64,000 nucleotides of DNA from a virus (IMGVR_UViG_3300045988_176633), one strand, 5' to 3'; positions 5,702-28,919 are shown, counted from the first letter of the stretch. Notes: generated from the letters alone by a model not told the origin. A program made the numbers and translations.

Positions 5702-5710
5702 AATAACAAA

Positions 5711-5751: not shown

Positions 5752-5762
5752 TTTTTACACTT

Positions 5763-6053: not shown

Positions 6054-6069
6054 TTTATTAGCTCTTTTA

Positions 6070-6112: not shown

Positions 6113-6115
6113 ATC

Positions 6116-12239: not shown

Positions 12240-12667
12240 ACTTTCATTATCGTCTGAATCTTATCGAAATCTCTATCTCTTGCATCTACGTCATCATAGA
12301 TGATCCTTAAATTTTTAATAGGGTTGTCTTTGAGGTTGACCTCTTCTGGCATCTCATTAATATTAAGGATTGCAGCTCCATTACTATCCCAATCTTTACT
12401 ATAAGTCAATACATAATACTTTGGAAGAGTAATTACTTTATCACCACTTCCAAGTGTGATAAATTTACTTTTTGACTGTTCAAGATTTCTTTTGAAAAGG
12501 AATCTTTTCAAACATTCGTATCGAAATTCTTTAAAACTTTCTTCATCTTCTACTTCAATCAATGTCTTTAATTTAGAAGATATAAGACCTGTCGAAGGAT
12601 TATCTTCGATAATTTTAAGACACAAACTAAGAGCTTTTATCAAAACCAATCTATGTAACATAATCAC
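12236..12667 (-). CDS. hypothetical protein
   Basis: 143-aa ORF with 4-nt overlaps to both neighbours. Confidence 0.55.
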   Translation of the reverse strand: MIMLHRLVLIKALSLCLKIIEDNPSTGLISSKLKTLIEVEDEESFKEFRYECLKRFLFKRNLEQSKSKFITLGSGDKVITLPKYYVLTYSKDWDSNGAAILNINEMPEEVNLKDNPIKNLRIIYDDVDARDRDFDKIQTIMKV

Positions 12668-13002
12668 TCCCTTTCGTTAAAATCTTCGAACTTGTGACAA
12701 GCTGAACAAAGAAGTCTAATATTGTTTTTATCCATCTTCAATTCAGGATGAGCTCCACGAGACTTTATGTGAGAAAAGAAAATAGGCTTTGGATCGTTTC
12801 CAAGGTCTTTTCCACATTTGGTACATTTATGAGGTCTCTCATTCCATATTTCTTGAAATAAAGATTGAAGATCCCCTCTTCGCTCTCGTGTTACTTCTTT
12901 GTCACAATCTTTACACAACCACTTAATCCTATTGTAAATCAAATGATTTGTACCACATTTTACACATGGACGAACTTCTTCTTTAACCTTCTTTTTCCAC
13001 AT
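12664..13002 (-). CDS. small HNH endonuclease
   Basis: FSHIKSRGAHPELKMDKNNIRLLCSACH is an HNH core, flanked by CxxC pairs (CVKCG, CKDC, CTKCG). Confidence 0.7.
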   Translation of the reverse strand: MWKKKVKEEVRPCVKCGTNHLIYNRIKWLCKDCDKEVTRERRGDLQSLFQEIWNERPHKCTKCGKDLGNDPKPIFFSHIKSRGAHPELKMDKNNIRLLCSACHKFEDFNERE

Positions 13003-13156
13003 ATTTATGATATTCTCTCATTGCTGATAATATACCTTGATACACTTCTTCATCAAATAGAACGTTGTCTATCCGATCTTTGTTATAGTTCAATGATTTT
13101 GAAATTTCGTTCCACAAAATCATTTCTTCTTCAGTTTTATACCTTTTCTTTTCCAT
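12983..13156 (-). CDS. hypothetical small protein (57 aa, below the ORF-track threshold)
   Basis: Hand translation gives MEKKRYKTEEEMILWNEISKSLNYNKDRIDNVLFDEEVYQGILSAMREYHKYVEKEG. The ATG lies 3 nt after the upstream stop. It fills an otherwise empty 156-nt gap. Confidence 0.4.
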   Translation of the reverse strand: MEKKRYKTEEEMILWNEISKSLNYNKDRIDNVLFDEEVYQGILSAMREYHKYVEKEG

Positions 13157-13158
13157 AA

Positions 13159-13647
13159 TCATTCTGTTTTACATACATAAAAATATTTACAACTCTTACA
13201 TTTGATCTCATTAAAAAGACTACCAAACGACAAACATCTTATGTAACCTCTAGGAGAAGAAAAATCTTTTCGTCGTTGTTCGTCAAAATATCTTTCGCTT
13301 ATTTTTATCGACTCGTCTTTAATAGGTGATCTCAATTTATAAGATTGAACAAACTTTGAAGTCATGTATTGTTGTTCTATAGTTCGTTCATCCCATCGTT
13401 TCAAAGCGTTCTTACCTATTATATGATTTAATGGTATAACAGGAAACCTTGTTCCTGTAATCACTTTAAAACTGAATTGAAACAACAAATATTCCCATAA
13501 ATCAATACTAAAACTTTCTATCTTATCCAGAAAAGACGAAAGAGTTGGTTCTTGTCTCTTATTGATTTTCAGACGAAAACTTGGGTTATTCAAGACCCTG
13601 CCTTGAATATACTCATATAACTCAATAAACTTTTCTTCTAACGACAT
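13159..13647 (-). CDS. hypothetical protein
   Basis: 162-aa ORF with a Cys-rich C-terminus (CKSCKYFYVC). Confidence 0.55.
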   Translation of the reverse strand: MSLEEKFIELYEYIQGRVLNNPSFRLKINKRQEPTLSSFLDKIESFSIDLWEYLLFQFSFKVITGTRFPVIPLNHIIGKNALKRWDERTIEQQYMTSKFVQSYKLRSPIKDESIKISERYFDEQRRKDFSSPRGYIRCLSFGSLFNEIKCKSCKYFYVCKTE

Positions 13648-13676
13648 ACAATGTTTGTATCTTTAACTTTAAAAGT

Positions 13677-13699
13677 AAAGGATGAACAACTCATCCTTT
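13677..13699 (-). terminator. terminator-like hairpin
   Basis: AAAGGATGA / TCATCCTTT form a 9-bp stem with a 5-nt loop, followed on the minus strand by ACTTTTAAAG. Lies 28 nt after the stop at 13728. Confidence 0.55.
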
Positions 13700-13727
13700 C
13701 ACCTTGTAAATATACAAAAATTAACTA

Positions 13728-14288
13728 CTATTCCCAACTAATTTGAAAAGCAATGGACTCTTCTGTTGCCTTTTCTATAGGTTTGTACCTGTTTTCAGTT
13801 GCAGTATCTTTTTCAGCGACATTATTATAATCTTCTATCACAGTCTTCTTATCGATAGATCGACACAGCCATAAACCTATTTCTTGATCAATCTCCATAT
13901 CCCCAATAGTAGCTTTGTCAAGTTCAGTCGCTTGATGAAATTCAGCGTAAAAAGGTTTACTGAAAATATCTGGGATCATTTCGAAGAAAGATTGTCCTTC
14001 ATTATTCTTATCAGTCTGAACAGCAGCTAATTGAAAAGAACCATAACTACCCTCTGGTGTTTCAAACCAGAGTTGAACATTTTTAACCTCAACTCCCAAT
14101 TCATTTTTCAAAATCAAACCAATATATTGAGTTTTACCTTTTACAAGAGAAAGAAGGCTCAATTCATCAAAAACATTGTTATCCTGATCATTGGGTACAG
14201 GAGTCGAAGATTTGAAACCACCTAGTGAATTGACTAATTTTGATTGTGGATCGTTGTATCCAGAAGATACTGTATAATATAATCTCAT
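13728..14288 (-). CDS. hypothetical protein (fibre-associated by position)
   Basis: The track ORF is 13728..14321. An internal ATG at 14288 forms a TAATG overlap with the upstream stop and is the more likely start. Confidence 0.55.
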   Translation of the reverse strand: MRLYYTVSSGYNDPQSKLVNSLGGFKSSTPVPNDQDNNVFDELSLLSLVKGKTQYIGLILKNELGVEVKNVQLWFETPEGSYGSFQLAAVQTDKNNEGQSFFEMIPDIFSKPFYAEFHQATELDKATIGDMEIDQEIGLWLCRSIDKKTVIEDYNNVAEKDTATENRYKPIEKATEESIAFQISWE

Positions 14289-15118
14289 TATTTTGTTGCT
14301 TTTAAATTTCCTAAAGCCCAATACTCACTCTTGACCGTATTATCAATGGTAAATGTACCGTTTGTATTTTTAATACGAGCAATATAAAATTCATTATTTC
14401 CTTTTTCGGGAGGGGTTTCTACAGAAGTTTCTTGAACTAAAGAAATCTCATAATAATCGTAAATGTAAAGACCTTCTCTCTGAGATTGTGAAAATACACC
14501 ACCAATAGGAAGAGTTCCTAATACAATCGGTCTTAAATTTGATTCTGCGACAAAAGTTGTATTAGAAGTTAATACTAAATTTTGATTATCGATTACATTG
14601 ACGACTTGATAAATACCGTTATTCAATGGTATAGAACCATCGTCTTTTATGAAACGGATACAAGTAGGGGTACTCGTTGATTGACCTCTTACTTTGCCAG
14701 AAAAATCTGCAGTACCAGAAACTACACCTTTAGTGTTAACTGAAACAATACCGAGTTCATAATTTCTAGTTGCGTACGCAATTTTCACCCAATAGAATAA
14801 GCTATCGTTAGGAACTTGGATATTATCTTCTACATTGATCTTTATAAACTGTCCTAAACTATTGATCGCCATTCCTGGCAAAACCTTGATACTATTTGCA
14901 ACAGAACCTTGTTGTACGATAAAAGGATCATTATATTCTACTCCATCAGGAGCAGTTCCACTACCATTGGCTTTAGCTGGATTGTTGGTGATGATACCAA
15001 AACTAAATGTTGCTTGTAACAATGCTTGAAAAAGCATTTCACTTGCAAAGAAAGATTGGAAATTAACCAATTCTTCTTTCTCTAAGAACATGTTTCTATT
15101 AATATTTAATTGACTCAT
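14288..15118 (-). CDS. hypothetical protein (fibre-associated by position)
   Basis: 276-aa ORF immediately downstream of the 1577-aa fibre gene. Confidence 0.55.
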   Translation of the reverse strand: MSQLNINRNMFLEKEELVNFQSFFASEMLFQALLQATFSFGIITNNPAKANGSGTAPDGVEYNDPFIVQQGSVANSIKVLPGMAINSLGQFIKINVEDNIQVPNDSLFYWVKIAYATRNYELGIVSVNTKGVVSGTADFSGKVRGQSTSTPTCIRFIKDDGSIPLNNGIYQVVNVIDNQNLVLTSNTTFVAESNLRPIVLGTLPIGGVFSQSQREGLYIYDYYEISLVQETSVETPPEKGNNEFYIARIKNTNGTFTIDNTVKSEYWALGNLKATK

Positions 15119-15131: not shown

Positions 15132-18100
15132 TTATTTCCAACCTGACGGAATCAAATTTGAATAAGATATCTTTGAACATCCTTTGAAAGTTTGATAATG
15201 TGATGCTGACGAAGGAGCTAAATCCCAAAGCCAACCCAGTGTAATTGGTTTAGATTCTGCAATAATAGGCATAGATTGTAATTCACTACAATTCAAGAAA
15301 GCATAATTCCAGTTAGTAACTGTAGAAGCTATATTTTGCGATATAACAATCACTTGTAGCGAGTTATAAGTTGAATCACCAACTCTTATACAACCATTCA
15401 AAAATTCTGACATATTCTGTAAAGAAGTGCAACCGTTAAATGTACCATGAGAAGACTCAGCTCCTCCATCTGGAGCCCATTCTGTTAAATTAGTACAATT
15501 CTTGAAACAAGAAGCTACTGAAACCAATCGAGATTGACCAGCAAAAAATCTTGGTGGAATTCTTTGTACACCAGAACCTTCAAAAGCTCTTGCCCAAGTA
15601 GTCACATTTCCATTCTCAATCTTACATCCAGAAATATCTGTCAATGATTTACAATCAATGAAAGACCAACTGAAACTAGAAGCACTAGTGGGGAAGCAAT
15701 CTGAACCTATACTACTCAGTAATATGCAACTATGAGCTAATACATTGAAATTAGTAGCTCTTGTGCAATTCCTGAAACATCTAGCTGGAATACTTCTCAA
15801 ATTGGTACAAGAAGAAACTAATCCTTCGAAAGTAGTTGCGTATACACAACTATCAAATAAACCAGAAGGAATCGAAGAAATTCCACTGTTTGCAAACGTG
15901 TAATAAAACGATTCTGCATTTCGTGGGAAAATAGAACTTCCAACACTTGAAAGCGAACTACAACCATTGAAAGCTGACTCAAAATCAGTACCATTTCTAA
16001 AAGGACTACCTGATACACTCGAAAGCGATTTACAATCTCTGAATACACTAGCGAACAATGTAAGATTACTTCCGAATAAGTCCAAAGGCACACTTGTTAT
16101 TCCAGAACCTCTAAAACAATTACTAGCATCACTTCCTGATACATTTAATAAAAGTCCAGAAGGAATACTTCTTAGAGCTGTACAATTCCTAAACCAACTC
16201 TCTATTGATCCACTAATATTTGGTGAACCAGACGCTAAACTTGATAAACTTGTACAACCATTAAATACACTTGTTCCATTTATTGGAAAATATCCTGGCC
16301 ATTGTGTAACAGCTAAGACGCTTGTATTATTCTGACAATTAAAATTCAACGTACTAGGGTTGGTCCTAGATCCTCCTACTATCTTCAACTCATTACCAGA
16401 CCATTCGTAATCAACTGAAGATCCAAAGCTCGGGAGTCTTTGACTGCTCATCCGAAGGATCAATGCCTTGTAAAGTGCGACAACAAGACCTGTTGTATTG
16501 ATAGCTATCCGTCTGGTTGTTATTGGTAAGCAACCAGATTCTTCTACCTTCAGAAGGACATACGCCGAATATGGAGCGTTTATAACGTATTTCCCTTGAT
16601 AATCAGAAGATCCATTGCCACTACTAACTACCACGTTAGAATCCGCAGATTCATATACTGTATATGATATATTGACTCCAGATGCGTTTGAACCATCAAT
16701 TAAAGTCGTCACTGTAAATTCTCGTAACGAATAAGTCAATGAAACTTGTTGATTAGCATCATTATTCGAAACTTGAACAGTGCCTTCTTTATCATAGTAA
16801 CCTACAGCTTGTATCGTCCAATTATATAAACCATTTCTCTTATCTGGAAACGTCACTTTTCCACTAGTATCTGTAGTCTTTGTATCACCGTCTAATACTA
16901 TTGTTGCATTAGGGACAGCATTACCATTAGTATTTGTAACTGTAAAATTAATATTATATGTCTTGTTCGTCAATAATACATTGATTGTTTGAGGTGTATC
17001 TGTAATCGACACTTCACCTGAAACAGAAGTATATTCTGGACGCTTAGAAACTTCGTAATCATACGAGTCAATTGGGAGGGTGTATTTTGCCTTACCTTGA
17101 CTATTTGTAATTCTGGTAATATTATTACAAACAACAGTCGCAGCTTCCACTGGTTTCCCTAAATCATCGACAACCATGAAAGTTACTTGACCATTTCGTC
17201 TAACCAAATTTATATCAAACACATAAGGAGCACTGTTCACGACAAATTGTCCTTGTTGTGAAGCATAAATCGTTTTCTTCGCCGTCCAATTATAGGAACC
17301 ATTAGGTAGTTCAGTCGATACTTTTCCTTGGCTATCTGATTCCCCAGAATAAGATCCTAAAGTAACAGTTGCGCCAACTGAAATTTGACCTTCTTCTCTT
17401 ACAGTTGCAGTCACTTGATACATCTTTTGTGACATTGTTATATTGACCGTTTCTGGACCTCCATTTACACCAAATAAATCTGTAATAGTGTGATATTCGT
17501 TTAATGTCGCTGTATAATTAAAAGATCCATCAGGTAAATTGATAGTTGCTTGTCCCTGTGCGTTTGTAGTTATAATAGGATTGTTTTCCACCTGAATAGA
17601 AACACCAGAAAGTTTTTTATTATTATCGTCTTGTACTACAAAAGTAACAACATAAACTTTTTGGTTCATTCTAATTTCAATATCAGAATCCTCATCAACA
17701 GAAATTGTATTTTTATAATCATTGTAACCAGCTTTCGTCGCTGTTAAAGAATACGATCCAGCTTTAACAATGAAACTCACTTGACCACTTGAATCAGATA
17801 TTTTAGTTGAACCGGCAAAAGTTACTGAAACACCTGTCAACAATGAAACTACCCCTTGATAATTAACACCTCTTGTTGTAAATGTCACATTATAAGTAGG
17901 AACTGGATTCATTGTTATATTTTGAGTCACTGGGGCATTAGTTACAGTCACAGATCCTGTAACTGGCAACCAATCAATTTTTTCAATTCGATAATTGAAA
18001 GTACCTACTAAAACATCTTTAAAAACAGCTTGTCCTTGTTCATTGGTATCAATATATGTATTGTTAAAATTAATTCTAGCTCCTTGAATAGGATTTGAAG

Positions 18101-19865
18101 AAGAATCTTTCACAATAAAAGTTACATCAAAAATAGGGATTAATTGCATCGTGACATTCTCAATCATATCGTCACGAACAAGGACTGACTTATCAACCGG
18201 ATAATACTTTTCCTTCTCAACTGTATACAGATATAAATCTGGATAAGCCATGAAGAATGTACTACCATCTTGACCTGTTGATTTAACCTCATTATTGAAT
18301 TTAACAACAGCTCCTAAAATAGCTTTAGCTTGTTCATTCTTGACAACAAAAGTTACCTTACGTTTGTAAAGTTCTCCTTGCATTTGTATATAACAAATCT
18401 GCTCATCTCCTTCGATTTCTTCTTCTACATATAGAACATTATTGACAATAGAAATGAAAAGGTTTTTTTCAACTGAATAAAGATAATCGCCAGGATAAAG
18501 ATCAAGAGTTACTTCACCATTAATATCTGTTTGCAATTCTTGATCTGCTATTGTAATAGTAGCTCCTTTAATATATTCTTTTCTTTCAGAAAAAACCTTG
18601 AAACGTACAGTTGTTTTTGTAAGAGCTTTAATCTCTTCACTAGCAAAAATATTTTTATATGAAACTAAATAAGTTTCTATAAATTGATCTATAGTAGATG
18701 TAGAAGAATAAGAATTATTCCTATAATAGGAGGCGATTATGTTTTTCTCCCCTAGATAACCTTGATAGAAAGGTAAATATATTGGTTTGATCTTTATATC
18801 ATAAATATTTAAATTTGAACTAACTTTAGTTCGATCTTGAACCAAATACAAAGACATGTATTTGATACCTTCTACAAATCTTAATCCTCTTCCATTAGGG
18901 AAATTCAGGGCTACTTCGTCGACAAAACTTCTATTTTTCTTTGAAATTGTTGCTCTTAACTCATAATAAATATCGGCGTTGTTTAACGTAACAGAAGCGT
19001 CATTTTTAACAAATGAATTGCTTTGTACAGTACCAATCGATTCAATACAAGAAACAGGTCTCTTCAATTCATCATAAACTTGGACTCCAAAAGTCAAATT
19101 CATGTTTTGAATATTATCTGTTTTTAAACGTAAAGAAACTTGATAAGCTAAATCTTCATCAACTACTAGAAGTTTATCTAAATCTCCTTCTGAACTGATT
19201 CCTACCAACTCATTTCCTATAAAAGTCATAGTTTGGATAGGTTCATTATCGTTGTCTACATCAGCTTGTAAAATAACACCACTAGGATTGATTAATGGAT
19301 ATTTATCTAAATTTTCAATATTGCTTGAACATTCGTAGGCTTTGGTTATATTCTCAACTGTATCTGTCCTATTCCAAGTAGGAGAGCTATGTCCTAATGT
19401 CCAACCACTATCTTTAGGAGCTAGAAGGGCAAAGATGAATTCATTTAAATCGTTGTATCGAATCAAACGAAGAAGTTCTCCTAATATAGTACCTTCTTTT
19501 GAAACGATATCCATACGACCTCTTTTTCTATACTCTTCTACATAGTTGTTGAAAAGATATTGCATTTGTTCTGTCGTATCAACAGTATCGGTTACCAAAC
19601 CTCTTTCTTTGATAAAGATATCAAATAAGATCTTGTTTACATCAATCTCTTCGTATTGTCGTCCATATAATACAACAATCGCAAAAAGATGTGTCACAGA
19701 TCCCCAAAACGAAACAAAATCTTCATTTTGTTTATTAAAAAAAACAGGAAGAATACCTGGACTACATATTTTATCCAAGACATTCTGTGCCCAAGCCTGA
19801 ATTTTAATATCATTCTTTTCAAAGAATTTTTTAAATATAGTTCTATTATATATTATATCTGCCAT
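15132..19865 (-). CDS. giant tail fibre protein: N-terminal anchor, about 9 CarboxypepD_reg-like beta-sandwich repeats, C-terminal BspA-type leucine-rich repeats
   Basis: 1577-aa ORF. Repeats resemble FIVKDSSSNPIQGARINFNNTYIDTNEQGQAVFKDVLVGTFNYRIEK. The C-terminus carries reiterated F(N/R)(G/N)C(T/S)(S/A)L(S/R)S(I/L/V) units. Confidence 0.75.
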   Translation of the reverse strand: MADIIYNRTIFKKFFEKNDIKIQAWAQNVLDKICSPGILPVFFNKQNEDFVSFWGSVTHLFAIVVLYGRQYEEIDVNKILFDIFIKERGLVTDTVDTTEQMQYLFNNYVEEYRKRGRMDIVSKEGTILGELLRLIRYNDLNEFIFALLAPKDSGWTLGHSSPTWNRTDTVENITKAYECSSNIENLDKYPLINPSGVILQADVDNDNEPIQTMTFIGNELVGISSEGDLDKLLVVDEDLAYQVSLRLKTDNIQNMNLTFGVQVYDELKRPVSCIESIGTVQSNSFVKNDASVTLNNADIYYELRATISKKNRSFVDEVALNFPNGRGLRFVEGIKYMSLYLVQDRTKVSSNLNIYDIKIKPIYLPFYQGYLGEKNIIASYYRNNSYSSTSTIDQFIETYLVSYKNIFASEEIKALTKTTVRFKVFSERKEYIKGATITIADQELQTDINGEVTLDLYPGDYLYSVEKNLFISIVNNVLYVEEEIEGDEQICYIQMQGELYKRKVTFVVKNEQAKAILGAVVKFNNEVKSTGQDGSTFFMAYPDLYLYTVEKEKYYPVDKSVLVRDDMIENVTMQLIPIFDVTFIVKDSSSNPIQGARINFNNTYIDTNEQGQAVFKDVLVGTFNYRIEKIDWLPVTGSVTVTNAPVTQNITMNPVPTYNVTFTTRGVNYQGVVSLLTGVSVTFAGSTKISDSSGQVSFIVKAGSYSLTATKAGYNDYKNTISVDEDSDIEIRMNQKVYVVTFVVQDDNNKKLSGVSIQVENNPIITTNAQGQATINLPDGSFNYTATLNEYHTITDLFGVNGGPETVNITMSQKMYQVTATVREEGQISVGATVTLGSYSGESDSQGKVSTELPNGSYNWTAKKTIYASQQGQFVVNSAPYVFDINLVRRNGQVTFMVVDDLGKPVEAATVVCNNITRITNSQGKAKYTLPIDSYDYEVSKRPEYTSVSGEVSITDTPQTINVLLTNKTYNINFTVTNTNGNAVPNATIVLDGDTKTTDTSGKVTFPDKRNGLYNWTIQAVGYYDKEGTVQVSNNDANQQVSLTYSLREFTVTTLIDGSNASGVNISYTVYESADSNVVVSSGNGSSDYQGKYVINAPYSAYVLLKVEESGCLPITTRRIAINTTGLVVALYKALILRMSSQRLPSFGSSVDYEWSGNELKIVGGSRTNPSTLNFNCQNNTSVLAVTQWPGYFPINGTSVFNGCTSLSSLASGSPNISGSIESWFRNCTALRSIPSGLLLNVSGSDASNCFRGSGITSVPLDLFGSNLTLFASVFRDCKSLSSVSGSPFRNGTDFESAFNGCSSLSSVGSSIFPRNAESFYYTFANSGISSIPSGLFDSCVYATTFEGLVSSCTNLRSIPARCFRNCTRATNFNVLAHSCILLSSIGSDCFPTSASSFSWSFIDCKSLTDISGCKIENGNVTTWARAFEGSGVQRIPPRFFAGQSRLVSVASCFKNCTNLTEWAPDGGAESSHGTFNGCTSLQNMSEFLNGCIRVGDSTYNSLQVIVISQNIASTVTNWNYAFLNCSELQSMPIIAESKPITLGWLWDLAPSSASHYQTFKGCSKISYSNLIPSGWK
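15135..16343 (-). repeat. BspA-like (LRR_5-type) leucine-rich repeat region of the 1577-aa fibre (approximate bounds)
   Basis: Units include FNGCTSLSSL, FRNCTALRSIPSGL, FRDCKSLSSV, FNGCSSLSSV, SSCTNLRSIPARCFRNC, FIDCKSLTDI, FKNCTNLTEW, FNGCTSLQNM and FLNCSELQSM. Confidence 0.65.
16476..18614 (-). repeat. array of about 9 CarboxypepD_reg-like domain repeats (protein level, approximate bounds)
   Basis: Period is about 80-90 aa. Recurring pattern: V(T/F)F.V.D..(G/N).P(I/V).GA.(V/I).....(T/S).(T/S)...G.(A/V)......G.Y.Y.(V/I).K.GY. Confidence 0.7.
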
Positions 19866-19992
19866 AATTAAGTTGTTTCCAACGATTCAAAGTTACTAAA
19901 ATGAAAGCAAACTATAACCAACAACAGTGTCAAAGCAAACTTTTTCAACCGCATAAAGATATCTACTTCCTTCATAACAAACAACATTTATT

Positions 19993-20874
19993 TTGTTTTT
20001 AAACACCTCAATCACTCTCCAGAAGGCAGCTAAACTTGTACAGATCACGACTCCACTGAATACAGAAACTGCAATTAATATTGAAAGTGGATTTTCAAAG
20101 TTAGAGTGGTGTTTAGTACACGCAGGTGCAGGTGGAGGAGGTGGAAATGTAAGATATCCAGGCGGAGGAGGTGGAGGAGGAAGTACTATTCTTGGAGAAT
20201 TATTAACTTTATTAGATGGCGGCACTTATACTGGAGGTTATATTATAAGAAGTGGTGGAGTTGGAGGCGAAGGTAGAACTTCTATAGCTCCAGGAGGTAT
20301 AGGAAAAGAACCAGATATGGCTAATATCTGGTTTAAAAAGAATGGAAGTTATGTTTACAATATTTTACACCAATTTAATGGTAACGGAGGATCAGGAGCT
20401 GGTAGTGGAGGAAGTAACGGAGGTCCTGGTAGTGGTCTTCTTAATACATTTGGTGTAAAACTTGGTATAGGTGGCGGCGGTGGTGGAGGTAGCGAAGGAG
20501 AAACCGATTTTGCTGCAGGTGGTGCAGGTGGTGCAGGTGGTGCAGTTTATTATAACGGTACAACTTATAATGGAGGAAAGGGTTACAGCCCATCTAATAT
20601 TTCAGTTCCAAATGGTGGCGGCGGCGGCAGTGGTGCTAGTAGTACAAATATAGGAAAGAATGCTGTGAATTACATAGGAGCATTAAGTGTTGGTGTACCT
20701 AATGATTTTGAAAAATATGGAATAACTGGAAGCGGTGAAGGTGGAAATGGAGGAAAAATAGGTTCAGGTGGAGAAAGTTCTCTTCCAAACTATGGTTCAG
20801 GTGGAAAAGGTGGAAAAATAAAAGAAAGTGGATTATCTGGACAACAAGGTATTCTTTTTATTTATTATCATTAA
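19993..20874 (+). CDS. silent or alternative Gly-rich C-terminal cassette for the 2097-aa fibre protein (only plus-strand ORF judged real)
   Basis: There is no ATG: the frame opens at 19978 after a TAA, and the track start is a TTG. Codons 4-21 (NTSITLQKAAKLVQITTP) are nucleotide-identical to codons 1756-1773 of 20921..27214 in inverted orientation. The rest is a diverged homologue of that protein's C-terminus. Confidence 0.7.
   Translation: MFLNTSITLQKAAKLVQITTPLNTETAINIESGFSKLEWCLVHAGAGGGGGNVRYPGGGGGGGSTILGELLTLLDGGTYTGGYIIRSGGVGGEGRTSIAPGGIGKEPDMANIWFKKNGSYVYNILHQFNGNGGSGAGSGGSNGGPGSGLLNTFGVKLGIGGGGGGGSEGETDFAAGGAGGAGGAVYYNGTTYNGGKGYSPSNISVPNGGGGGSGASSTNIGKNAVNYIGALSVGVPNDFEKYGITGSGEGGNGGKIGSGGESSLPNYGSGGKGGKIKESGLSGQQGILFIYYH
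20002..20055. repeat. inverted repeat, left arm (IR-L), 54 bp perfect
   Basis: AACACCTCAATCACTCTCCAGAAGGCAGCTAAACTTGTACAGATCACGACTCCA is the exact reverse complement of 21896..21949. Mismatches begin immediately outside. Confidence 0.95.
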
Positions 20875-20887
20875 TTTAAATAAAACA

Positions 20888-20913
20888 AGGGCCTGGAAAT
20901 GAATCCAGGCCCT
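20888..20913. terminator. bidirectional terminator hairpin between the convergent stop codons
   Basis: AGGGCCTGG (20888-20896) pairs with CCAGGCCCT (20905-20913) around an 8-nt loop. A/T-rich flanks. Sits in the 46-nt gap between the stops at 20874 and 20921. Confidence 0.75.
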
Positions 20914-20920
20914 ATTCAAT

Positions 20921-23900
20921 TTATTTATAGTATAATTCAATAATACCTTGTCCTCCATTTCCTCCGTTTCCACCTTTATATGAAGAATTGTAAACTCTTC
21001 CACCTCCTCCTCCACCAGCTCCATACTCTCCTAGACCACCGTTTCCACCATCGCTAGTAGTGCTGCTACCATTTCCACCATTTCCACCTTTACCAAAGGA
21101 TCCACCTCCACCACCTCCTCCTGAAGAATTACTTCCACTTGTTCCACTTCCACCTGTTCCACCATCACCTTTTGAAGGTAAAAGAATATCTGGAATGACT
21201 GTATAAGTACTAGTTCCAAATCCACTTCCACCTGTTCCGTAATTTCCACCATCAATTGTTGATCTATTGGTATAACCAGAACCACCATCTCCTCCTGTAC
21301 CATTTCCTCTATTTAAATTTCCTCCTTCACTAACACCACCTTTACCTCCTCCTGTTGTATGCGCTAGACCTTTACCACCTATCGCTCCTTGAATACTACC
21401 AGCATTTACACGGTTATTTCTAGCACCTCCTCCTCCACCACCTCCCCAATCGGGTGTAGATGATTCTTGATAAGAACCACCACCACCACCTCCTCCTCCA
21501 CAACCCTTATTATTGTTAGAAGGGTTAACACTACCACCATCTCCTCCGTCTCCCCTACTTTCATTGTTTAATTGAGAAGCACCGTATCCCCAACGACCTG
21601 AATATGCTTGATGTACTACATCTTCAATAGTAACAATACTCTCGTAACCATCATTACCAGTATAACCTTGAGTAGTCGTACTACCTCCTGCACCTCCTGC
21701 ACCTGCATTACCAACTACGAGTTTTAAATTTGATATACTTGTTGTATGATCTTTTATATAAACAATTCCACCTCCTCCGCCTCCACCTCCTGCTGCAATA
21801 TTGTTTCCACCTCCTCCGCCTCCACCTCCTGCTGCAATAAGAAAATCAACATTTGTATATCCTGGTTCTATTTGTTGATTAATTTCTGCACCCAATGGAG
21901 TCGTGATCTGTACAAGTTTAGCTGCCTTCTGGAGAGTGATTGAGGTGTTGATTGAATCATTCGACCCAGACATCGTCACAGTTCCAGTCTTAGTCACATA
22001 TCCAGCCGCACTCACTGAATAGCTTAACGTTCCTGCTGCAATTCCAGCTTTTGAAGCTGCTCCACTTGAATTTGTCGTTAAAGTCCCCGTTGCTATTCCA
22101 GTTAACGTTATTTTTGCTCCTGAAATAGGACCGTTAGCGTCAGAAATAGTAAATTGTGCTGTATATAAAGCAGTTAAAGCGATATTGATAGTTGATGTAC
22201 TTGAAATTGTATACGATTGACTAAACGCTTTCCAATATGTACCTGCATCAATTGCTATTGTATGACTTCCGTAAAGTACATTTGACATTGTGATGTTACC
22301 AGAAGAATTTGTCGTACCTTTTGATGTACCATCCAATTTCACTGTGACACCATTTCTATTAACACCCGCTCTTTTAACATTCACAACAAATGTATAATAT
22401 CTCAAAAGAGCATAAGTTGCACTCTGACTATGAGAACTTCGACTTACAGTTACACTACCAGTCGTATCTTTGTAACCAGATTTTGAAATCGTGTAAGTGT
22501 AAGAACCTGGTTTCACATTTGGAATTGTAGCAACTCCACTTGAATCTGTCGTACCTGTAAAAGTACCTAAACTTGAGTTGACAAGTTTAACAGTTGCACT
22601 ACCGACATTTGCACCAGACGTTGTATTTTCTTTAACTGTCGCTGTAAATGTAACCAAATACTGTAAACTTGCATTTACAGTTTGATTACTCAAACCAACT
22701 GTAACATTACCCGACCAAGTTTGATATCCACTTAATTCAACAGTGCAAGCATAAGCTGCTGACTGTGATTGCATTGTTACAGCTAATTGACCACTTGAAT
22801 TTGTCGTACCCTTTGATGTACCAGCAACTTTCACTGTCGCTCCAGAAAGAGCTGTACCAGCGTCATCTTTAGCGATAAATGTAACTGTTACTTGACTGGT
22901 TAAAGTAATTTGTTGATTAACGTTTGTACCATTAACTGTTACACTTCCTGATTTAGCTTGATAAGGTGATTTAGCAGCACTACTCCAATTGTACGTACCA
23001 TCTATTACATTAGAGAAAATCGCCTGACCACTTGCATTTGTAGTTACAGTTTGATTATTCATAGTAACTGAAATACCAGAAAGAGCTGTACCAGCATAAT
23101 TAACAAAAGTCAAAGTAACCGTACTATACTTCTCTAAAGTAACATTGATCGTCTGATTTGCATTGACAATGTTAAATGAACCAGAAGCTGATCTATATCC
23201 ACTTAAAGAAGCAGTCCAAGAAACGGCACCATTTAAAGTTGCATCGTTTTTAGCACTAGCAGCTAAAATCCATTGACCGCTGGAATTTGTCGTTCCATTT
23301 GCAGTAGAAGTTCCACCAATAGTTTTAACATTACTAATACTAACAGAAGCCCCGTTTAAATTCGTTGTCTTGTACTTAACATTAAAAGTAACACCCCAAT
23401 ATTTGTAGTTCTGCATTTGTACTTGAACCGTTTTATCCGCAGAACTTACTGTTGTGCTTCCAGGTTGTTGTTTGTATCCACTAGCATCTGTTGTGTAAGT
23501 ATAATTTCCATTAGGGACATCAACTGAAATATTTCCATTAGAATCTGTCGTACCAGATTTGACTGTCGTACCAGAACTATTCTTGATAACAACAGTAGCT
23601 CCACTTAAATTTGCCACACCATTTTTAACATTTAAAGTTAATAACCCTCCATGAACCATAGTTAAGTTCACATACGAAGTTTCATCCTCTTTAACATTGA
23701 CAGTACCAGTTATCGTTTGATAACTTACAAGACTTACTTTGTAAGTATGATTCCCTGCTGACAGCGAAACGTTGACTTGTCCATCAACACCTGTTTGATA
23801 GTTGGTAACGTTATCGATCAAAATATTAGCACCTTGTAAAGGATCAGTTCCATCTGTAACTGTAAAGACAGCTCTTTTGCCTCGTTTCAATGAAATAGCT

Positions 23901-26900
23901 ACTGTCTTATTTGCATTAGCAATAGTATCGTCTCCTTCACCTGTTGAATAATCTGAGAAAGACGCTCCCCAATGAAACGAACCGTTTATCGCTTGAACCT
24001 GAGGTGTACGTCCTGCGTCATTTGTCGTTAATTCAATCGACGATTGACCAGCAGGAAGAACAATAGCTTCACCACTTACAACAACTTTGGCTCCTGATAA
24101 GATCGTCCCTTGTTCTCCTGTAACTGTAAAATCTAATAAATAAATCCTATCAATTTGAACATTGATCGTATCAATGCCTGTAACAGTTATTTGAGTTGTC
24201 GTACTGATGTAATTCTGTTTTGTGATAGAAACTTCAAAATCACCTTTTGGAAGTTGTAAAACTGCTTCACCACTTGCATTTGTTAAAACTGATTGACCCT
24301 TTGCCGATACAACAGCATCTTGAACTAAAGCAGGTGTTGGAGTTGTTTTATCTCTTACCACAAATGTGATCGGATAAGTAACTGGATCTAAAGAAACTTG
24401 TACACTTGTATCTGAATTACTTACCGTTACAGAACCTGTCTTTGTTTGAAATTCTGTTGCAGATATCTCATATTGATGTATACCATTTACCAAACCAATC
24501 ACCGCAATACCACCAGCATTAGTCTCTACCGTTATTCCTTCAACTGTTATCGAAGCACCTTCAACTGGAACACCTTCACTCGTAACAGAAAAGATAACGT
24601 TCCAAGGTCTCAATACCATTGGTACATCTACAGATACATTGGAATTATTAACAACTAAAGTTCTATCAACATCTACATAACCAATTTTAGTCACTGTATA
24701 GTCATAAGAACCATTGATTAACGTCAACTTCACTAAACCATCTTGACCTGTTGAATATTGTTGACCATTTATATTGATAACTGCTCCTTGAATAGGAGTG
24801 TTTCCGTCTTTGACAGAGAAAGTTATCGACCAGGGATAATCAACCATTTTAGCGACAACGCTAACATCGTTATCTTTCACCAGAACAGATCCTGAAAAGT
24901 CATAATAACCCAATTTTTCAACCTTATAAGGATAGGTCCCATTTTGCAAACCAATTTGCACTTTACCACCTTCATCGGTTACAAGTACTTGATCTGAAAT
25001 AGATACTAAAGCATCTTGAATGGGGTTGTTCTTAGAATCGACAACAGTTATGAAAACATCGTAATGTCTGAAATCTAACTGATAGACGAAATCAGCGTCT
25101 GATGTATCAATGTTAAAATTAATCGTTAAATCGTCATAAATTGGATTTGTGATTGTACCAGTATATTCACCATTTGTCAATCTAAAAACAACTAATCCAT
25201 TGCTATTGGTACGAGCAACTAATCCATTGTTCAACGTTATTAACGCATCTGGAATCACTTTACCAGAAACAAGTTCAATGACCTTAATAGTAACATTATA
25301 CTTGTAAAGATCCATTTCGATAGTTCTTGTTTCATCTTGATTTAAAACCACAATAAGAGCTTGTGTATCTACATATCCTGGTTTACTAAATTTAGCAAGA
25401 TAACTTCCATTGATCAAACTAACTTGAACCTTACCATCGTCATCTGTCACATAACTATCACTACCTATCTCAACTAAAACACCTGAAATAAAATTCTCAG
25501 AATTGAGACCTTTTACGAAAATTGTTTGTACCCATTTATGATAATATAAAGTAACTGGTACATAAACATCTGAATTATCAACAACGACAGAACTTCCTTC
25601 ATTAGAATCAAAACCTAATTTTTCAACTGTATAAGGATAGGTCCCATTTTTCACCAACACTGTTGCTTCACCGTTGACATTAGTTGTTAAAGTTTGATTA
25701 GCAATAGAAATGGTTGCGTCTACAACTGGTACACCAAATTGATCTTCAACCATGAAACTAACCTGAAATGGAGCTAATTCTAATACAATACCAATGTAAA
25801 CCGGCGCATTCAATACAACAAATTGTCCTTGTTGTTGTTTATACTTTTCTTTACTAGCAGTATAAATGTAATTACCATTTACCAAAGAAATAGTCGCTAA
25901 ACCATCTTCATCTATGATAACAGATCCACTACCAACAGAGATTCTCACACCCGACAACGGATTACCATCTTCATCTGTGATAGTAAAATAAACTGGTTGT
26001 CTAAGTGCTAATGCACTATCATTTAAACCTTGAAATAAATCCTCTTGTCCTGCAGGATAAAACATAGGAGAGAGTTCACTTCCAGCATCGTATAAAACAA
26101 TACCTTCAAGATTTCTCATTACGAATCCTTTAATTCTAGGAAGTTGATTAGGTGGAACTTCTTGGTCGTAATATGGAAAGAAATATTCGTCAGGAACATA
26201 TTTGACACCTTCAGCATTCTTCACGATACCAAGTAGATCATCCCATTGAACGATCTTACCTGCTTCCCAGAATCGAAAGTCGAGATATTTTGTCAAAGCT
26301 ACCTGAATATTTTTTCTTACTGTAGCTACATCGTAAGAAGGATCAATTTCTATTCGAAAATCCATCCCACGCTCACTACCAATAAAAAACCATTCAGCAT
26401 TCTTTAATTGAATCCCAACAACGTTTCCTTCGAGGTTTAATTCAAAAAGTCCAAAATAACTTTTAGATTTCTCTAATAAAGTCTCTAATTCATCCTGTGT
26501 GAATAAAATTCCATTTTGACTTACTAGATAAAGATAAAAGATTCCATCTTCTCCCAACCCAACATTTAATACTTTCAAAATACGATCATCGATATTTTGG
26601 AATATTTGAGTATAATATTCCAACGTTCCTTTAGAAAGTGTGTTGAGGTTAGTCATGATCCTAATACGAAAAGTCTCATCATCTTCACTATCTCTACCAC
26701 CTGTAGCCATGTATTCATTAGTGCATTCAATATGACCACTAGGAGCAGGAGTGACGTTGATAATACTATTTGCATCGACATTTGTAACCAATCCTTGGTT
26801 AACACTTCTGACACTTACATATGCATAACCAGATCTACCAACTGTAACAGATTCATTTACAGAGAAACGAATACCGTTTTGATTTACAAAGAAATTAGTT

Positions 26901-27214
26901 TCATTGTAAATAGTTCCCGGGTCTGCATAAACTCTCACATAAGTAGATGAACCAAGAGCACCTTTTCTTGGACTAACCCCAAAAAGTGCCGCTGATTTAT
27001 CGAGATATTCTCCTGTAGCTGTTTCTGGGAATATCTTTGCTTCTGTGATAGCAATATCTTTGATCGCTTTTTGTGCGACTTTTGCAGTACCAAAAGCCAC
27101 AGCATTTAAGACTGAACCATCAGCTACATTCGTAACTTTATTGGTCTTGTCTAAAAACAGCTCGATCCAAAGATTTTTAAGCGTCGAAATTGTATTACTA
27201 ACTTGCGTTATCAT
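20921..27214 (-). CDS. giant baseplate-J-like / tail fibre fusion protein with about 17 CarboxypepD_reg-like repeats and a Gly-rich C-terminal domain
   Basis: 2097-aa ORF. The N-terminal ~400 aa resemble the baseplate J/gp47 family (VADGSVLNAVAFGTAKVAQKA...FPETATGEYLDKSAALFGVSPRKG). A repeat array follows. The C-terminal 324 aa have poly-Gly runs (AAGGGGGGGGNNIAAGGGGGGGG). Confidence 0.8.
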   Translation of the reverse strand: MITQVSNTISTLKNLWIELFLDKTNKVTNVADGSVLNAVAFGTAKVAQKAIKDIAITEAKIFPETATGEYLDKSAALFGVSPRKGALGSSTYVRVYADPGTIYNETNFFVNQNGIRFSVNESVTVGRSGYAYVSVRSVNQGLVTNVDANSIINVTPAPSGHIECTNEYMATGGRDSEDDETFRIRIMTNLNTLSKGTLEYYTQIFQNIDDRILKVLNVGLGEDGIFYLYLVSQNGILFTQDELETLLEKSKSYFGLFELNLEGNVVGIQLKNAEWFFIGSERGMDFRIEIDPSYDVATVRKNIQVALTKYLDFRFWEAGKIVQWDDLLGIVKNAEGVKYVPDEYFFPYYDQEVPPNQLPRIKGFVMRNLEGIVLYDAGSELSPMFYPAGQEDLFQGLNDSALALRQPVYFTITDEDGNPLSGVRISVGSGSVIIDEDGLATISLVNGNYIYTASKEKYKQQQGQFVVLNAPVYIGIVLELAPFQVSFMVEDQFGVPVVDATISIANQTLTTNVNGEATVLVKNGTYPYTVEKLGFDSNEGSSVVVDNSDVYVPVTLYYHKWVQTIFVKGLNSENFISGVLVEIGSDSYVTDDDGKVQVSLINGSYLAKFSKPGYVDTQALIVVLNQDETRTIEMDLYKYNVTIKVIELVSGKVIPDALITLNNGLVARTNSNGLVVFRLTNGEYTGTITNPIYDDLTINFNIDTSDADFVYQLDFRHYDVFITVVDSKNNPIQDALVSISDQVLVTDEGGKVQIGLQNGTYPYKVEKLGYYDFSGSVLVKDNDVSVVAKMVDYPWSITFSVKDGNTPIQGAVININGQQYSTGQDGLVKLTLINGSYDYTVTKIGYVDVDRTLVVNNSNVSVDVPMVLRPWNVIFSVTSEGVPVEGASITVEGITVETNAGGIAVIGLVNGIHQYEISATEFQTKTGSVTVSNSDTSVQVSLDPVTYPITFVVRDKTTPTPALVQDAVVSAKGQSVLTNASGEAVLQLPKGDFEVSITKQNYISTTTQITVTGIDTINVQIDRIYLLDFTVTGEQGTILSGAKVVVSGEAIVLPAGQSSIELTTNDAGRTPQVQAINGSFHWGASFSDYSTGEGDDTIANANKTVAISLKRGKRAVFTVTDGTDPLQGANILIDNVTNYQTGVDGQVNVSLSAGNHTYKVSLVSYQTITGTVNVKEDETSYVNLTMVHGGLLTLNVKNGVANLSGATVVIKNSSGTTVKSGTTDSNGNISVDVPNGNYTYTTDASGYKQQPGSTTVSSADKTVQVQMQNYKYWGVTFNVKYKTTNLNGASVSISNVKTIGGTSTANGTTNSSGQWILAASAKNDATLNGAVSWTASLSGYRSASGSFNIVNANQTINVTLEKYSTVTLTFVNYAGTALSGISVTMNNQTVTTNASGQAIFSNVIDGTYNWSSAAKSPYQAKSGSVTVNGTNVNQQITLTSQVTVTFIAKDDAGTALSGATVKVAGTSKGTTNSSGQLAVTMQSQSAAYACTVELSGYQTWSGNVTVGLSNQTVNASLQYLVTFTATVKENTTSGANVGSATVKLVNSSLGTFTGTTDSSGVATIPNVKPGSYTYTISKSGYKDTTGSVTVSRSSHSQSATYALLRYYTFVVNVKRAGVNRNGVTVKLDGTSKGTTNSSGNITMSNVLYGSHTIAIDAGTYWKAFSQSYTISSTSTINIALTALYTAQFTISDANGPISGAKITLTGIATGTLTTNSSGAASKAGIAAGTLSYSVSAAGYVTKTGTVTMSGSNDSINTSITLQKAAKLVQITTPLGAEINQQIEPGYTNVDFLIAAGGGGGGGGNNIAAGGGGGGGGIVYIKDHTTSISNLKLVVGNAGAGGAGGSTTTQGYTGNDGYESIVTIEDVVHQAYSGRWGYGASQLNNESRGDGGDGGSVNPSNNNKGCGGGGGGGGSYQESSTPDWGGGGGGGARNNRVNAGSIQGAIGGKGLAHTTGGGKGGVSEGGNLNRGNGTGGDGGSGYTNRSTIDGGNYGTGGSGFGTSTYTVIPDILLPSKGDGGTGGSGTSGSNSSGGGGGGGSFGKGGNGGNGSSTTSDGGNGGLGEYGAGGGGGGRVYNSSYKGGNGGNGGQGIIELYYK
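21766..21839 (-). repeat. near-tandem 35-nt direct duplication (39-nt period) inside the Gly-run coding region
   Basis: TTCCACCTCCTCCGCCTCCACCTCCTGCTGCAATA occurs at 21766..21800 and again at 21805..21839. It encodes IAAGGGGGGGG twice. Confidence 0.85.
21896..21949. repeat. inverted repeat, right arm (IR-R), 54 bp perfect
   Basis: Exact reverse complement of 20002..20055. Codon-aligned in the 2097-aa ORF: 27214-21949 = 5265 = 3 x 1755. Confidence 0.95.
21950..25996 (-). repeat. array of about 17 CarboxypepD_reg-like domain repeats (protein level, approximate bounds)
   Basis: Repeats resemble FSVKDGNTPIQGAVININGQQYSTGQDGLVKLTLINGSYDYTVTKIGY. They run from about aa 407 to aa 1755 and end exactly at IR-R. 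Confidence 0.7.
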
Positions 27215-28007
27215 ATATTAAAAATGATTTAATCCCTTCAATTCGCTCAAGCCAATTTTCGGGAAGTTTATCTCGTTTTTCTAAATTATCTTTGGCCCAT
27301 AAAGGTTGTAAATTTCTGAAATTGAAACAAATACGTTGTTGATTAGGATCTGAAAGATCAAAAGAGGCACAAGGAACAATATGATCAACGTGCCATTCAC
27401 CGTAATTATCCCAACTCATTCCTTCAACAAACTGATTCTCAAGGTGTTTCTTGAGATCCTCAAGAGAGCAACCGATATATTTAATTGTGTGGTGTAATTT
27501 ACGATTTTCTTTTAAAACTCTATACAATCTATTTCGTAAATTTAACTTCAAAATAAAATTAATATCTCGTTCTCTTCTTTTTTCTTTTGAATATTGCAAA
27601 ACATATTTACTGATTTTCTCTTTATTCTTTCGCTGATATTCTTTGTGATATTCTTTTAAATACTCTTGATTTTTTAAATTCCAATTCTTTATTCGAATAA
27701 ACTGAGCCTCTCTGTTGTTTTTATAATATTCTTTGTGTTGTTTTCTTAATCTTTCTTTATTGTTTAAATAATAAAGATGCGACCTTTCTCTCTGTTTATC
27801 TTTATTATTTAAACGTCTCTCCTGTGATTTGACTATAATTTTAACTCTATTCTTCTGATAATAAGAATCACTACTTTCTTTATAACAATCCTTACAACGA
27901 AGACTCAAACCATCAGATTTACACTTACATTTATAAAAGTTATCGAGAGGGAGTTCTCGTTTACAACGAGAACAAACTTTTAGACCGGTTTCAAAATTCG
28001 CTTTCAT
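27198..28007 (-). CDS. HNH homing endonuclease (paralogue of 39755..40525)
   Basis: N-terminal MKANFETGLKVCSRCKRELPLDNF zinc ribbon. C-terminal WHVDHIVPC...NLQPLWAKDNLEKRDK is an H-N-N/H core. Inserted between baseplate genes. Confidence 0.7.
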   Translation of the reverse strand: MKANFETGLKVCSRCKRELPLDNFYKCKCKSDGLSLRCKDCYKESSDSYYQKNRVKIIVKSQERRLNNKDKQRERSHLYYLNNKERLRKQHKEYYKNNREAQFIRIKNWNLKNQEYLKEYHKEYQRKNKEKISKYVLQYSKEKRRERDINFILKLNLRNRLYRVLKENRKLHHTIKYIGCSLEDLKKHLENQFVEGMSWDNYGEWHVDHIVPCASFDLSDPNQQRICFNFRNLQPLWAKDNLEKRDKLPENWLERIEGIKSFLIYDNAS

Positions 28008-28010
28008 AAA

Positions 28011-28919
28011 TTAAATAGGAATGTTGATAATATAACTATTTGCACTAATAGTCGTTGCTCTTATAGATAAAAAGACCGAATCTTGATCTCTCTTTAAATC
28101 CAAGAGCTCAACTGTTTTCCATCTACTATCTCTTTGAAACATATTCATAAGTCCCTTGAAAATAGTAGCATATTGAATGGCGTTCACCGTTGTTCCAATA
28201 AATTCATTGGTTATTCCATAATCTTCAAATTCTGGGTAAGAACCTTTTAAAGAACTTTGAATCAATTCTAAGGCTTGTACCATTGCTTGATCATATTCAA
28301 TCACCTTTAAATCATCGTTTTCAAAGGTAAATGATTTATCTAAATCAACACCAAGAATACTTTTCCCATTTAATACATCAACAACATTATCAACGTAATT
28401 TAACCCCACATTCTGAAGATTAACTGAAAATATAGGAGAAGAAGAATTTGTATACAATTCTTCTGTGATGTATTGAGGTACTGTTATATTTACCCAATCG
28501 TCTTGAGGAGTTATTGCATCGAGATTTGCTGATACATCTTCAAAAGTTTCATCAGATTGAAGTATCTTTTCAACTTTGATCGTGTTAGTTCGAACATAAT
28601 CAAACACACTTCTCATCCATTTAGCTGAACTCCTTATCGTCAAAATCTTTGTTTGAATCTCTGTGAAAGTGTCTAATAATTCCCAGGCATCGAGATCATT
28701 TAAAGAATTTTTGTGCAAAGTAAAAAGAGGTTCTATTTTATTAACCTCTTTAGTTAAACGATCTAAAGCATAGAACGATTCTTGTCTTATACTACCACCT
28801 TGATAGTAATCGACAATATAAGGATATTCTGTTGATACAAAATCAACAAAACTCTGAAAAAATGATTTTATATCATATCCAGTTATATTCTCAAATTTTT
28901 CATACATCGTCTCATTCAT
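28011..28919 (-). CDS. hypothetical protein, probable baseplate component (by position)
   Basis: 302-aa ORF between spike-like and baseplate-J-like genes. 4-nt overlap with the upstream gene. Confidence 0.45.
   Translation of the reverse strand: MNETMYEKFENITGYDIKSFFQSFVDFVSTEYPYIVDYYQGGSIRQESFYALDRLTKEVNKIEPLFTLHKNSLNDLDAWELLDTFTEIQTKILTIRSSAKWMRSVFDYVRTNTIKVEKILQSDETFEDVSANLDAITPQDDWVNITVPQYITEELYTNSSSPIFSVNLQNVGLNYVDNVVDVLNGKSILGVDLDKSFTFENDDLKVIEYDQAMVQALELIQSSLKGSYPEFEDYGITNEFIGTTVNAIQYATIFKGLMNMFQRDSRWKTVELLDLKRDQDSVFLSIRATTISANSYIINIPI

Follow-up and report, generated by a model that had tools for sequence, protein, structure and literature searches.

The 64,000-nucleotide viral sequence IMGVR_UViG_3300045988_176633 (referred to here as the window, meaning this whole stretch) contains, at the end of a giant fibre/baseplate gene, a 1840-bp block that is bounded by a perfect inverted repeat and holds two convergent cassettes for alternative C-termini, one fused to the fibre and the other silent. 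Comparison with related contigs indicates that this block very probably does invert in this lineage. We interpret the locus as an invertible two-cassette module for the exchange of fibre C-termini that is flipped by general homologous recombination, a statement which, taken as a whole, we consider somewhat better than evenly probable.

A fibre gene with two alternative C-terminal cassettes

A reading of the window made from its sequence alone had proposed that a 54-bp inverted repeat brackets a start-less alternative C-terminus for the giant fibre protein. When the repeat was recomputed, positions 20002–20055 and 21896–21949 were perfectly complementary over 54 nt, with zero extension beyond the outer edges, where similarity had been described as lost; inward of the repeat, similarity fades (67 nt at 94%). 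This is the sole strong inverted repeat in the 64 kb, the runner-up measuring 32 nt at 75%. The features of the locus, in window coordinates, are listed below (ORF, open reading frame; IR-R and IR-L, right and left arms of the inverted repeat).

21950–27214, minus strand: constant part of the giant fibre/baseplate protein, codons 1–1755 (ORF list and Pfam)
21896–21949, minus strand: IR-R, codons 1756–1773 (NTSITLQKAAKLVQITTP), the joint between shaft and distal domain; perfect 54-nt complement of 20002–20055
20921–21895, minus strand: resident (expressed) cassette A, a 324-aa Gly-rich distal domain plus stop codon (translation, Pfam)
20888–20913, unstranded: GC-rich hairpin GGGCCTGGA-loop-TCCAGGCCC between the two convergent stops, terminator-like on both strands
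20056–20874, plus strand: silent cassette B, a 272-aa Gly-rich distal domain plus stop codon, without a start codon of its own (translation)
20002–20055, plus strand: IR-L, silent copy of the 18 joint codons, complement of IR-R
20056–21895, unstranded: candidate invertible block, 1840 bp, in frame after an in-silico flip
19866–20001, unstranded: non-coding left flank, from IR-L to the ATG of the downstream fibre-like gene, with no conserved in-frame start for the silent cassette
15132–19865, minus strand: 1577-aa protein with CarboxypepD_reg repeats (Pfam), a second, downstream fibre-like gene, given as context and lying outside the switch

The giant fibre ORF (20921–27214, minus strand) encodes 2097 aa and contains IR-R in frame, and its translation agrees with the codon alignment reported previously. 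In Pfam, an N-terminal Baseplate_J domain (E = 3e−16) is followed by 14 CarboxypepD_reg beta-sandwich stretches and then by Gly_rich_2; the target is thus a baseplate-J fusion, as had been claimed, with a shaft predicted to consist of CarboxypepD_reg/PEGA-type beta-sandwich repeats. Translation likewise reproduced the two alternative ends, GIIELYYK for cassette A and GILFIYYH for the silent cassette B, the latter in frame with IR-L. Glycine makes up 36% of cassette A, which passes the gathering cut-off of Gly_rich_2 (PF21722) with 33.3 bits against 24.3; cassette B gives a weak match of 21.5 bits, below that cut-off, and P0003, an 86% identical relative of the silent cassette, has a precomputed PF21722 match.

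The plus-strand frame of cassette B opens after a TAA at 19975–19977 and lacks an ATG, as first described; its sole start is a TTG at 19993, 9 nt before IR-L, and the resulting ORF of 293 aa is by far the longest on the plus strand of the window. The hairpin at 20888–20913, on which the two stops had been said to converge, scores as intrinsic-terminator-like on both strands. In-silico inversion of 20056–21895 fuses the silent domain to the shaft in frame, giving a fibre of 2045 aa, and the two orientations are predicted to be distinguishable by the junction peptides ITTPLGAEINQQ and ITTPLNTETAIN. The 1840-bp block consists of the two cassettes and the hairpin and nothing else; in other words, there is no co-inverted U/U′ chaperone gene. 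Separately, a 21-nt direct repeat, TTTTTCAACYGMATAMAGATA, occurs at 18213–18233, 18465–18485, and 19941–19961 with 81–100% identity, two copies lying within the 5′ part of the 1577-aa gene and one in the non-coding flank just left of IR-L.

Cassette positions and selection among relatives

The proposal that the C-terminal cassette is invertible was supported by relatives of the window, which hold the same cassettes in expressed and silent positions, carry opposite junctions, and, in a sister clade, include an inversion of the entire block. The close clade (clade 1) comprises approximately 18 contigs with flanks 93–97% identical, obtained from exact-pattern repeat scans and protein-anchored searches; a profile-based IMG/VR search yielded no further close-clade contigs. 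Cassettes were typed by translating outward from the repeat in every copy, and at least eight cassette families (A–H) were distinguished, all of them beginning behind ...KLVQITTP and finishing with the motif GGQGI-x-x-YY. The arrangements are given below as expressed cassette over silent cassette, with a question mark where the position was not assembled.

A over B: window, 179618, OGCZ01000075.1, L101
A over B′: L100
B′ over C: L009
B′ over H: L095
B′ over ?: L089
C over H: L002, L094
D over E: L004, with L006 from the same sample
E over B2: L093
F over G: L007, L091
? over A: L003
? over H: L092
? over B′′: L097

Across contigs, cassettes A, B/B′, C, and E have each been seen both shaft-fused and in the silent position beside the left non-coding flank; B′, a variant of cassette B, is shaft-fused in L009, L089, and L095. 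The left flank and repeat of L003 are identical to those of the complete genome OGCZ01000075.1 at 565 of 566 nt (99.8%), and inside the repeat L003 continues into the start of cassette A (122 of 123 nt), the cassette that is shaft-fused in OGCZ01000075.1, so that the two carry opposite junctions. The hairpin is kept between every cassette pair in the relatives. In L004, the asymmetric loop of this hairpin reads as the reverse complement when compared with the shaft, and the diverged loop of L093 apparently does the same. The hairpin is probably a second recombination joint. The invertible block measures 1143–1846 bp in relatives. Furthermore, 9 of the 18 close-clade contigs end, start, or turn chimeric within the 1.9-kb block, for which the chance expectation is, by estimate, only a few percent; these breaks fit structural heterogeneity within samples, and a strain mixture with different cassettes would also explain them.

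The observed pairings are transitive: A stands over B/B′, B′ over C and H, and C over H, while D stands over E and E over B2, and no cassette pair has been seen in both orders among complete contigs. This order may reflect the dominant host type in the sampled guts, or a genuine asymmetry of the switch.

A scan with the baseplate-J protein recovered 64 more distant contigs (66–72% protein identity, each about 100–108 kb). Approximately 20 of them carry the module, that is, a 35–68-bp repeat with arms mostly 100% identical and a convergent start-less cassette, and most of the 64 have no second cassette. Where the repeat is missing, as in MT835500.1, the relatives carry one fused tip, and no additional gene is present; the free-standing gene that the sequence-only reading had named as possible counter-evidence was therefore not seen. 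The clade 2 repeat lies just downstream of the KLVQIT joint, encodes QSNYQLDTSYKYVSLLIVGRGG, and has an outer edge that falls into two classes. The clade 3 repeat encodes QSITLYALYVSSSGWFAPVTS and brackets cassettes of ~460–490 aa unlike the Gly-rich tips. Three clades thus have three different repeats (NTSITLQKAAKLVQITTP, QSNYQLDTSYKYVSLLIVGRGG, and QSITLYALYVSSSGWFAPVTS), and orientation varies between genomes in all three. Between L162 and L161, the flanks are collinear (97.1% and 99.2%) and the entire repeat-to-repeat block of 2945 nt is reverse-complemented; the block of L143 is likewise reversed relative to those of L141 and L160, and L143 expresses the cassette that is silent in L141, L160, and L139 (92–97% protein identity), and conversely. 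In the clade with a ~3200-aa fibre (L161, L162, and L165, ~18206–21121), the cassettes end in ...YTNTIW or ...SKITWGE, and the same switch design would thus serve a different kind of distal domain.

In the close clade, every one of the eight complete silent cassettes is an open reading frame. For pairs silent in both genomes compared, dN/dS was 0.17–0.26 at dS 0.19–0.46, and among silent copies of cassette B it was 0.24–0.26. These low values indicate that the silent copies are translated often enough for selection to act. Decayed modules also occur: at L123:17225–18855, a stop ends the silent cassette at 37 aa, and what is left of the repeat is 35 nt at 91%; L007 (11603–12799) and L091 have a silent cassette shortened in frame to 111 aa, with both ends retained. 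A few close cassette pairs show dN/dS >1, from few substitutions, which hints at diversifying selection. From this hint, together with its distal position and hypervariability, we infer that the Gly-rich domain is the receptor-binding tip. Sequence and profile searches of the PDB with this tip returned spurious linker matches only. A homologue search with the silent cassette gave three matches, glycine words saturating the candidate list, and an exact look-up of P0001 gave no match.

Probable agent of the inversion and rival explanations

The earlier statement that no recombinase gene is present in the 64 kb held for the families searched: window ORFs of ≥100 aa gave no match to Resolvase (PF00239), Phage_integrase (PF00589), or transposase in Pfam. 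The search of the remaining phage genome that had been recommended was carried out on a 96–98% identical relative, which completes a genome of ~102 kb, and none of these families was found in the 30 larger ORFs of its other 37.7 kb; PHROGs, applied to the ORFs of this relative, added no recombinase of that kind. When Hin and a Xer protein were used in tblastn against 3.1 Mb of related loci, nothing was found in phage DNA, and no invertase adjoined any of ~25 repeat-bearing loci within 10-kb flanks. The window contained no match to a hix/gix-type site (degenerate consensus, ≤3 mismatches), and the repeat has no internal dyad symmetry. No reverse-transcriptase family was found either, the RVT_3 match being an RNase H protein.

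One candidate enzyme was examined and set aside, namely, a XerC-like tyrosine recombinase beside a truncated cassette in L094, which most likely derives from a low-GC Bacilli chromosome, joined to phage DNA in a chimeric assembly, rather than being a phage invertase. At L094:8800–10977, after cassette C and the hairpin, the convergent H-type cassette breaks off at 139 aa and is followed by a 168-aa ORF, acetyltransferase-like by appearance, and by the XerC-like gene. The GC content of this added stretch is 25.8%, compared with 34.7% in the phage part, and the contig coverage is 3.8×. The XerC-like protein is 100% identical to one on a 556-kb contig, its homologues are named XerC of Bacilli, and the gene is missing from all other loci. 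The chimera most likely arose via low-complexity Gly codons.

Meanwhile, the repeats bear several marks of homologous recombination. In all seven close genomes that hold both arms, the arms share variants (the block CCAGA, TTGCG, or TTACA, plus CTT/CTC); because these include the synonymous pair CTC/CTT, protein-level selection is no explanation for them, and gene conversion must be invoked. In clade 2, the arms are 100% identical in most genomes, while the repeat differs between genomes. Its inner edge is not fixed: the perfect match covers 44 bp in L007, 54 bp in the window, and 67 bp in both L008 and OGCZ. The arms have two inner mismatches in L007/L091 and one central mismatch in L093. Repeat length and position also vary (35–68 bp), and the clade 1 and clade 2 repeats are unrelated in sequence. 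Mosaics of repeat edge and cassette were seen in L008 (LNTE-INQQ) and L100 (a B′/B hybrid). The 96–98% identical relative encodes RecA (E = 5e−80), an SbcD-like protein, a Holliday-junction resolvase, a UvrD-like helicase, and NAD ligase, together with an SbcC-like protein that was read from translation without a database match; these genes belong to the genome of the relative and not to the window. Homology-driven inversion is favoured because no recombinase was found, the repeat is unlike an enzyme site, variants are shared between arms, mosaics occur, and recombination genes are present in this close relative. As to the agent itself, we lean, with modest confidence, towards general recombination.

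The mechanism that we propose would operate as follows. The constant 1773 codons of the fibre gene end in the 18-codon joint, a silent inverse copy of which lies 1.84 kb downstream. Recombination between the two copies would invert 20056–21895, and the start-less cassette B would then replace cassette A in frame, giving a fibre of 2045 aa instead of 2097 aa, while the central hairpin would terminate transcription in either orientation. The exchange would be driven by homology, rather than by a site-specific invertase, and performed by the phage RecA, SbcCD-like nuclease, Holliday-junction resolvase, and ligase, or alternatively by replication-linked strand switching. The conserved joint and hairpin would also permit the exchange of single cassettes between co-infecting relatives, and the lineage could thereby share a pool of at least eight distal domains, two per genome. 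More broadly, a lineage of ~100-kb virulent gut phages, whose hosts are probably Bacteroidota, may phase-vary its receptor-binding tip without a site-specific recombinase, with RecA/SbcCD/resolvase flipping 35–68-bp coding repeats at a useful frequency and co-infecting phages trading cassettes, each carrying two of at least eight tips; this wider picture is tentative, and we would place it a little short of an even chance.

Several observations weigh against this interpretation, and some of them favour the view that the second cassette is a spare part, its inversions and swaps being rare accidents of general recombination over evolutionary time. Coexistence of both orientations in one phage population is a possibility hinted at only indirectly, by the contig breaks within the block and by the L003/OGCZ01000075.1 pair. 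The L003 junction lies at a contig end, just 56 nt past the 67-bp repeat, and the flipped state in the window's own clade rests on this one contig-end junction and on cassette positions. At 35–68 bp, the repeats are barely long enough for RecA-type recombination to be efficient, and the AlphaFold2 model of the cassette, built from a 4-row alignment, was unusable (pLDDT 31.9). There is also a strong orientation bias: A is the expressed cassette in each of the five complete A/B genomes, and one clade 2 cassette type occupies the silent position in 14 genomes, against a single genome that expresses it. High-coverage assemblies cross the block unbroken (L093 at 852× and L091 at 290×), which argues against a near 50:50 mixture of orientations; either inversion is rare, or one state is dominant under selection. 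In phage Mu, the G(+) orientation is dominant in lytically grown stocks. The spare-part view also gains from the decay in some lineages (the 37-aa cassette and 91% repeat of L123 and the 111-aa cassette of L007/L091) and from the majority of the 64 distant relatives without a second cassette. On the other hand, it must contend with purifying selection on cassettes that are silent in both genomes, with orientation that differs between 99.8% identical strains, with repeats that are perfect within most genomes though diverging between genomes, and with the breaks within the block in half of the close-clade contigs. We therefore judge it unlikely that the locus is not an operating switch.

We hold it similarly doubtful that inversion by general recombination should give way to site-specific inversion by a recombinase acting in trans on a core site in the repeat; the enzyme would be either a serine or tyrosine invertase of the host (Bacteroidales-type) or a phage protein that escaped recognition. 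Such an enzyme is possible: Bacteroidota hosts encode many invertases acting in trans, several phage ORFs have no family match and could include an unrecognised recombinase, the outer edge of the repeat is sharply fixed in clade 1, and the design is identical to the gene-splicing switches of Mu G and P1 C. Nevertheless, the unrelated repeats of clades 1 and 2, with edges that differ even inside clade 2, and the lack of dyad symmetry, of a hix/gix-like core, and of an invertase beside the ~25 loci all speak against it, as do the arm-shared variants along the whole repeat, which need the heteroduplex repair that conservative site-specific exchange does not give. The plus-strand ORF at 19993–20874 could instead be an independent gene read from its own TTG, for example, a separate adhesin docking on the fibre. 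The TTG 9 nt upstream of IR-L is present in the window and seven relatives, and gene callers report the ORF as a protein of 293–295 aa, but in five relatives (L006, L007, L091, L092, and L095), the stretch from the upstream stop to the repeat offers no ATG, GTG, or TTG in frame, the first 18 codons equal the shaft joint at the nucleotide level, the same domain is shaft-fused in other genomes, and repeat-less relatives have no such gene, all of which makes this very improbable. Hardly any weight can be given to misassembly as the source of the repeat or its orientations. Repeats of 54–67 bp do equal or exceed some assembly k-mer sizes, and L094 is clearly chimeric inside the block, but the design was found again in no fewer than 25 independent contigs, produced by different projects with different assemblers, one of the assemblies using k = 119, and the consistent A/B orientation in five assemblies indicates that it was not randomly assigned.

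The phage genome and comparison with known systems

The window has a GC content of 33.5%, and every credible gene lies on the minus strand. By walking overlapping IMG/VR contigs at 96–98% identity, we obtained a circular map of ~101.7 kb, of which the window represents about two thirds. The genes in the window or in close relatives include a DnaE-type polymerase, primase, ribonucleotide reductase, NAD ligase, BACON-domain proteins, several inteins, and 7-deazaguanine-type modification genes; no integrase was found among them, which fits a virulent phage. The N-terminus of the fibre is nearest to that of MT835500.1, an uncultured human-faecal phage (70% identity), followed by those of Chryseobacterium and Bacteroides thetaiotaomicron phages (38–42% identity), and from these relatives the host is probably a member of Bacteroidota. 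GenBank phages contained no near-identical DNA to the window, tblastn of cassette A against known phages gave no match, and the repeat sequence was absent from 185,579 reference genomes.

Three apparent inteins were observed in this phage genome. The large terminase (window 8571–11366, minus strand, with a C-terminal Terminase_6C domain) is split by an intein that combines a Hint domain with a LAGLIDADG homing endonuclease, the ribonucleotide reductase of the close relative (L076:2254–5565) has Pfam matches to an intein and an HNH endonuclease, and the SbcC-like gene (L072 end/L085 start) appears, judged by eye, to contain an intein with a homing endonuclease. A radical-SAM protein (3770–4573, minus strand) adjoins a PTPS/QueD-like protein (4560–5177, minus strand), and GTP cyclohydrolase I is encoded by one of the window ORFs that lie within 153–15118 and 27198–28919; this combination suggests 7-deazaguanine-type DNA modification. 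At 38988–42096 (minus strand), four successive ORFs of near-equal size (256, 256, 256, and 267 aa) suggest a small paralogous family, and in L008, two stretches outside the four-ORF block align to the block, at 94% and 75%.

Textbook tail-fibre inversion belongs to temperate enterobacterial phages with a dedicated invertase, whereas the present module occurs in a virulent, uncultured gut lineage in which no invertase was found and three clades have different repeats. No description of this switch system was found in the literature. Surveys of gene-altering programmed inversions and intragenic invertons in bacteria identified prophage tail-fibre genes as an enriched class (NAR 2023, PMC9881135; bioRxiv 10.1101/2023.03.11.532203); these surveys scanned bacterial genomes and found recombinase genes enriched nearby. 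Not until 2026 did a paper claim to be the first to report putative invertons on gut viral genomes assembled from metagenomes, and its worked example is in a Microviridae capsid gene rather than a fibre-tip switch (PMC13501310). If general recombination is indeed the agent, the duplication of a short coding joint is enough for host-range variation of programmed appearance to evolve, and screens for recombinase genes or for short non-coding repeats would miss this design. Bacteroides-type hosts evade phages by phase-varying their surfaces. Two tips per phage, drawn from a shared pool, would directly counter this evasion; they would be the viral equivalent of phase-variable capsules and S-layers on the host side, and they could help to explain long-term coexistence. 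The KLVQIT joint and the conserved hairpin would also be natural swap points for host-range engineering.

Among known systems, the closest parallel is that drawn by the sequence-only reading, namely, the Mu G segment with Gin and the P1 C segment with Cin (also e14 Pin and p15B Min). In these systems, as here, a repeat-bounded block carries two convergent alternative C-terminal tail-fibre exons and excludes the promoter and the constant N-terminal part, and inversion splices the other exon in frame, changing the receptor-binding end. The present locus differs in that no serine invertase is adjacent or was found in the genome, there are no hix/gix-type 26-bp dyad sites and no co-inverted chaperone gene, the repeat sequence differs between sister clades, and the carrier is a virulent ~102-kb phage of a probable Bacteroidota host with a baseplate-J-fused fibre. 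Repeat length, which had also been offered as a difference, does not separate them, the repeats of the P1 C segment being ~0.6 kb and those of Mu G 34 bp.

The locus is neither a shufflon nor a diversity-generating retroelement. The R64-type shufflon (Rci) similarly produces alternative C-termini of one adhesin (PilV) by DNA inversion and a pool of variants in the population. However, it has several segments per replicon, 19-bp sfx sites, and an adjacent rci gene, whereas here there are exactly two cassettes per genome, long coding repeats, no recombinase found (no PF00589), and a pool spread across genomes. In contrast to diversity-generating retroelements of the BPP-1 type, no reverse transcriptase was found here, and the repeats are inverted and identical rather than adenine-mutagenised direct copies. 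Among virulent phages, T-even gp37/gp38 show mosaicism via conserved motifs, and collagen-like repeats flank VR2 in Streptococcus thermophilus phages; as here, host-range domains are exchanged by general recombination at short conserved coding motifs. T-even gp38 adhesins are also glycine-rich, but no sequence match links the cassettes to gp38 or to any solved structure, and the T-even and S. thermophilus exchanges occur between genomes, without a resident silent copy or inversion. Finally, the probable mechanism resembles that of plastid inverted repeats and herpesvirus isomers, which likewise combine inversion without a dedicated recombinase with arms that are alike within a genome, and that of an invertible region of ~30 kb in Anabaena cyanophages, which also flips without a dedicated recombinase (bioRxiv 10.64898/2026.02.14.705889). 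In these flip-flop systems, repeats of 0.4 to many kb rearrange gene order without splicing coding sequences, whereas here coding repeats of 35–68 bp would swap a protein domain.

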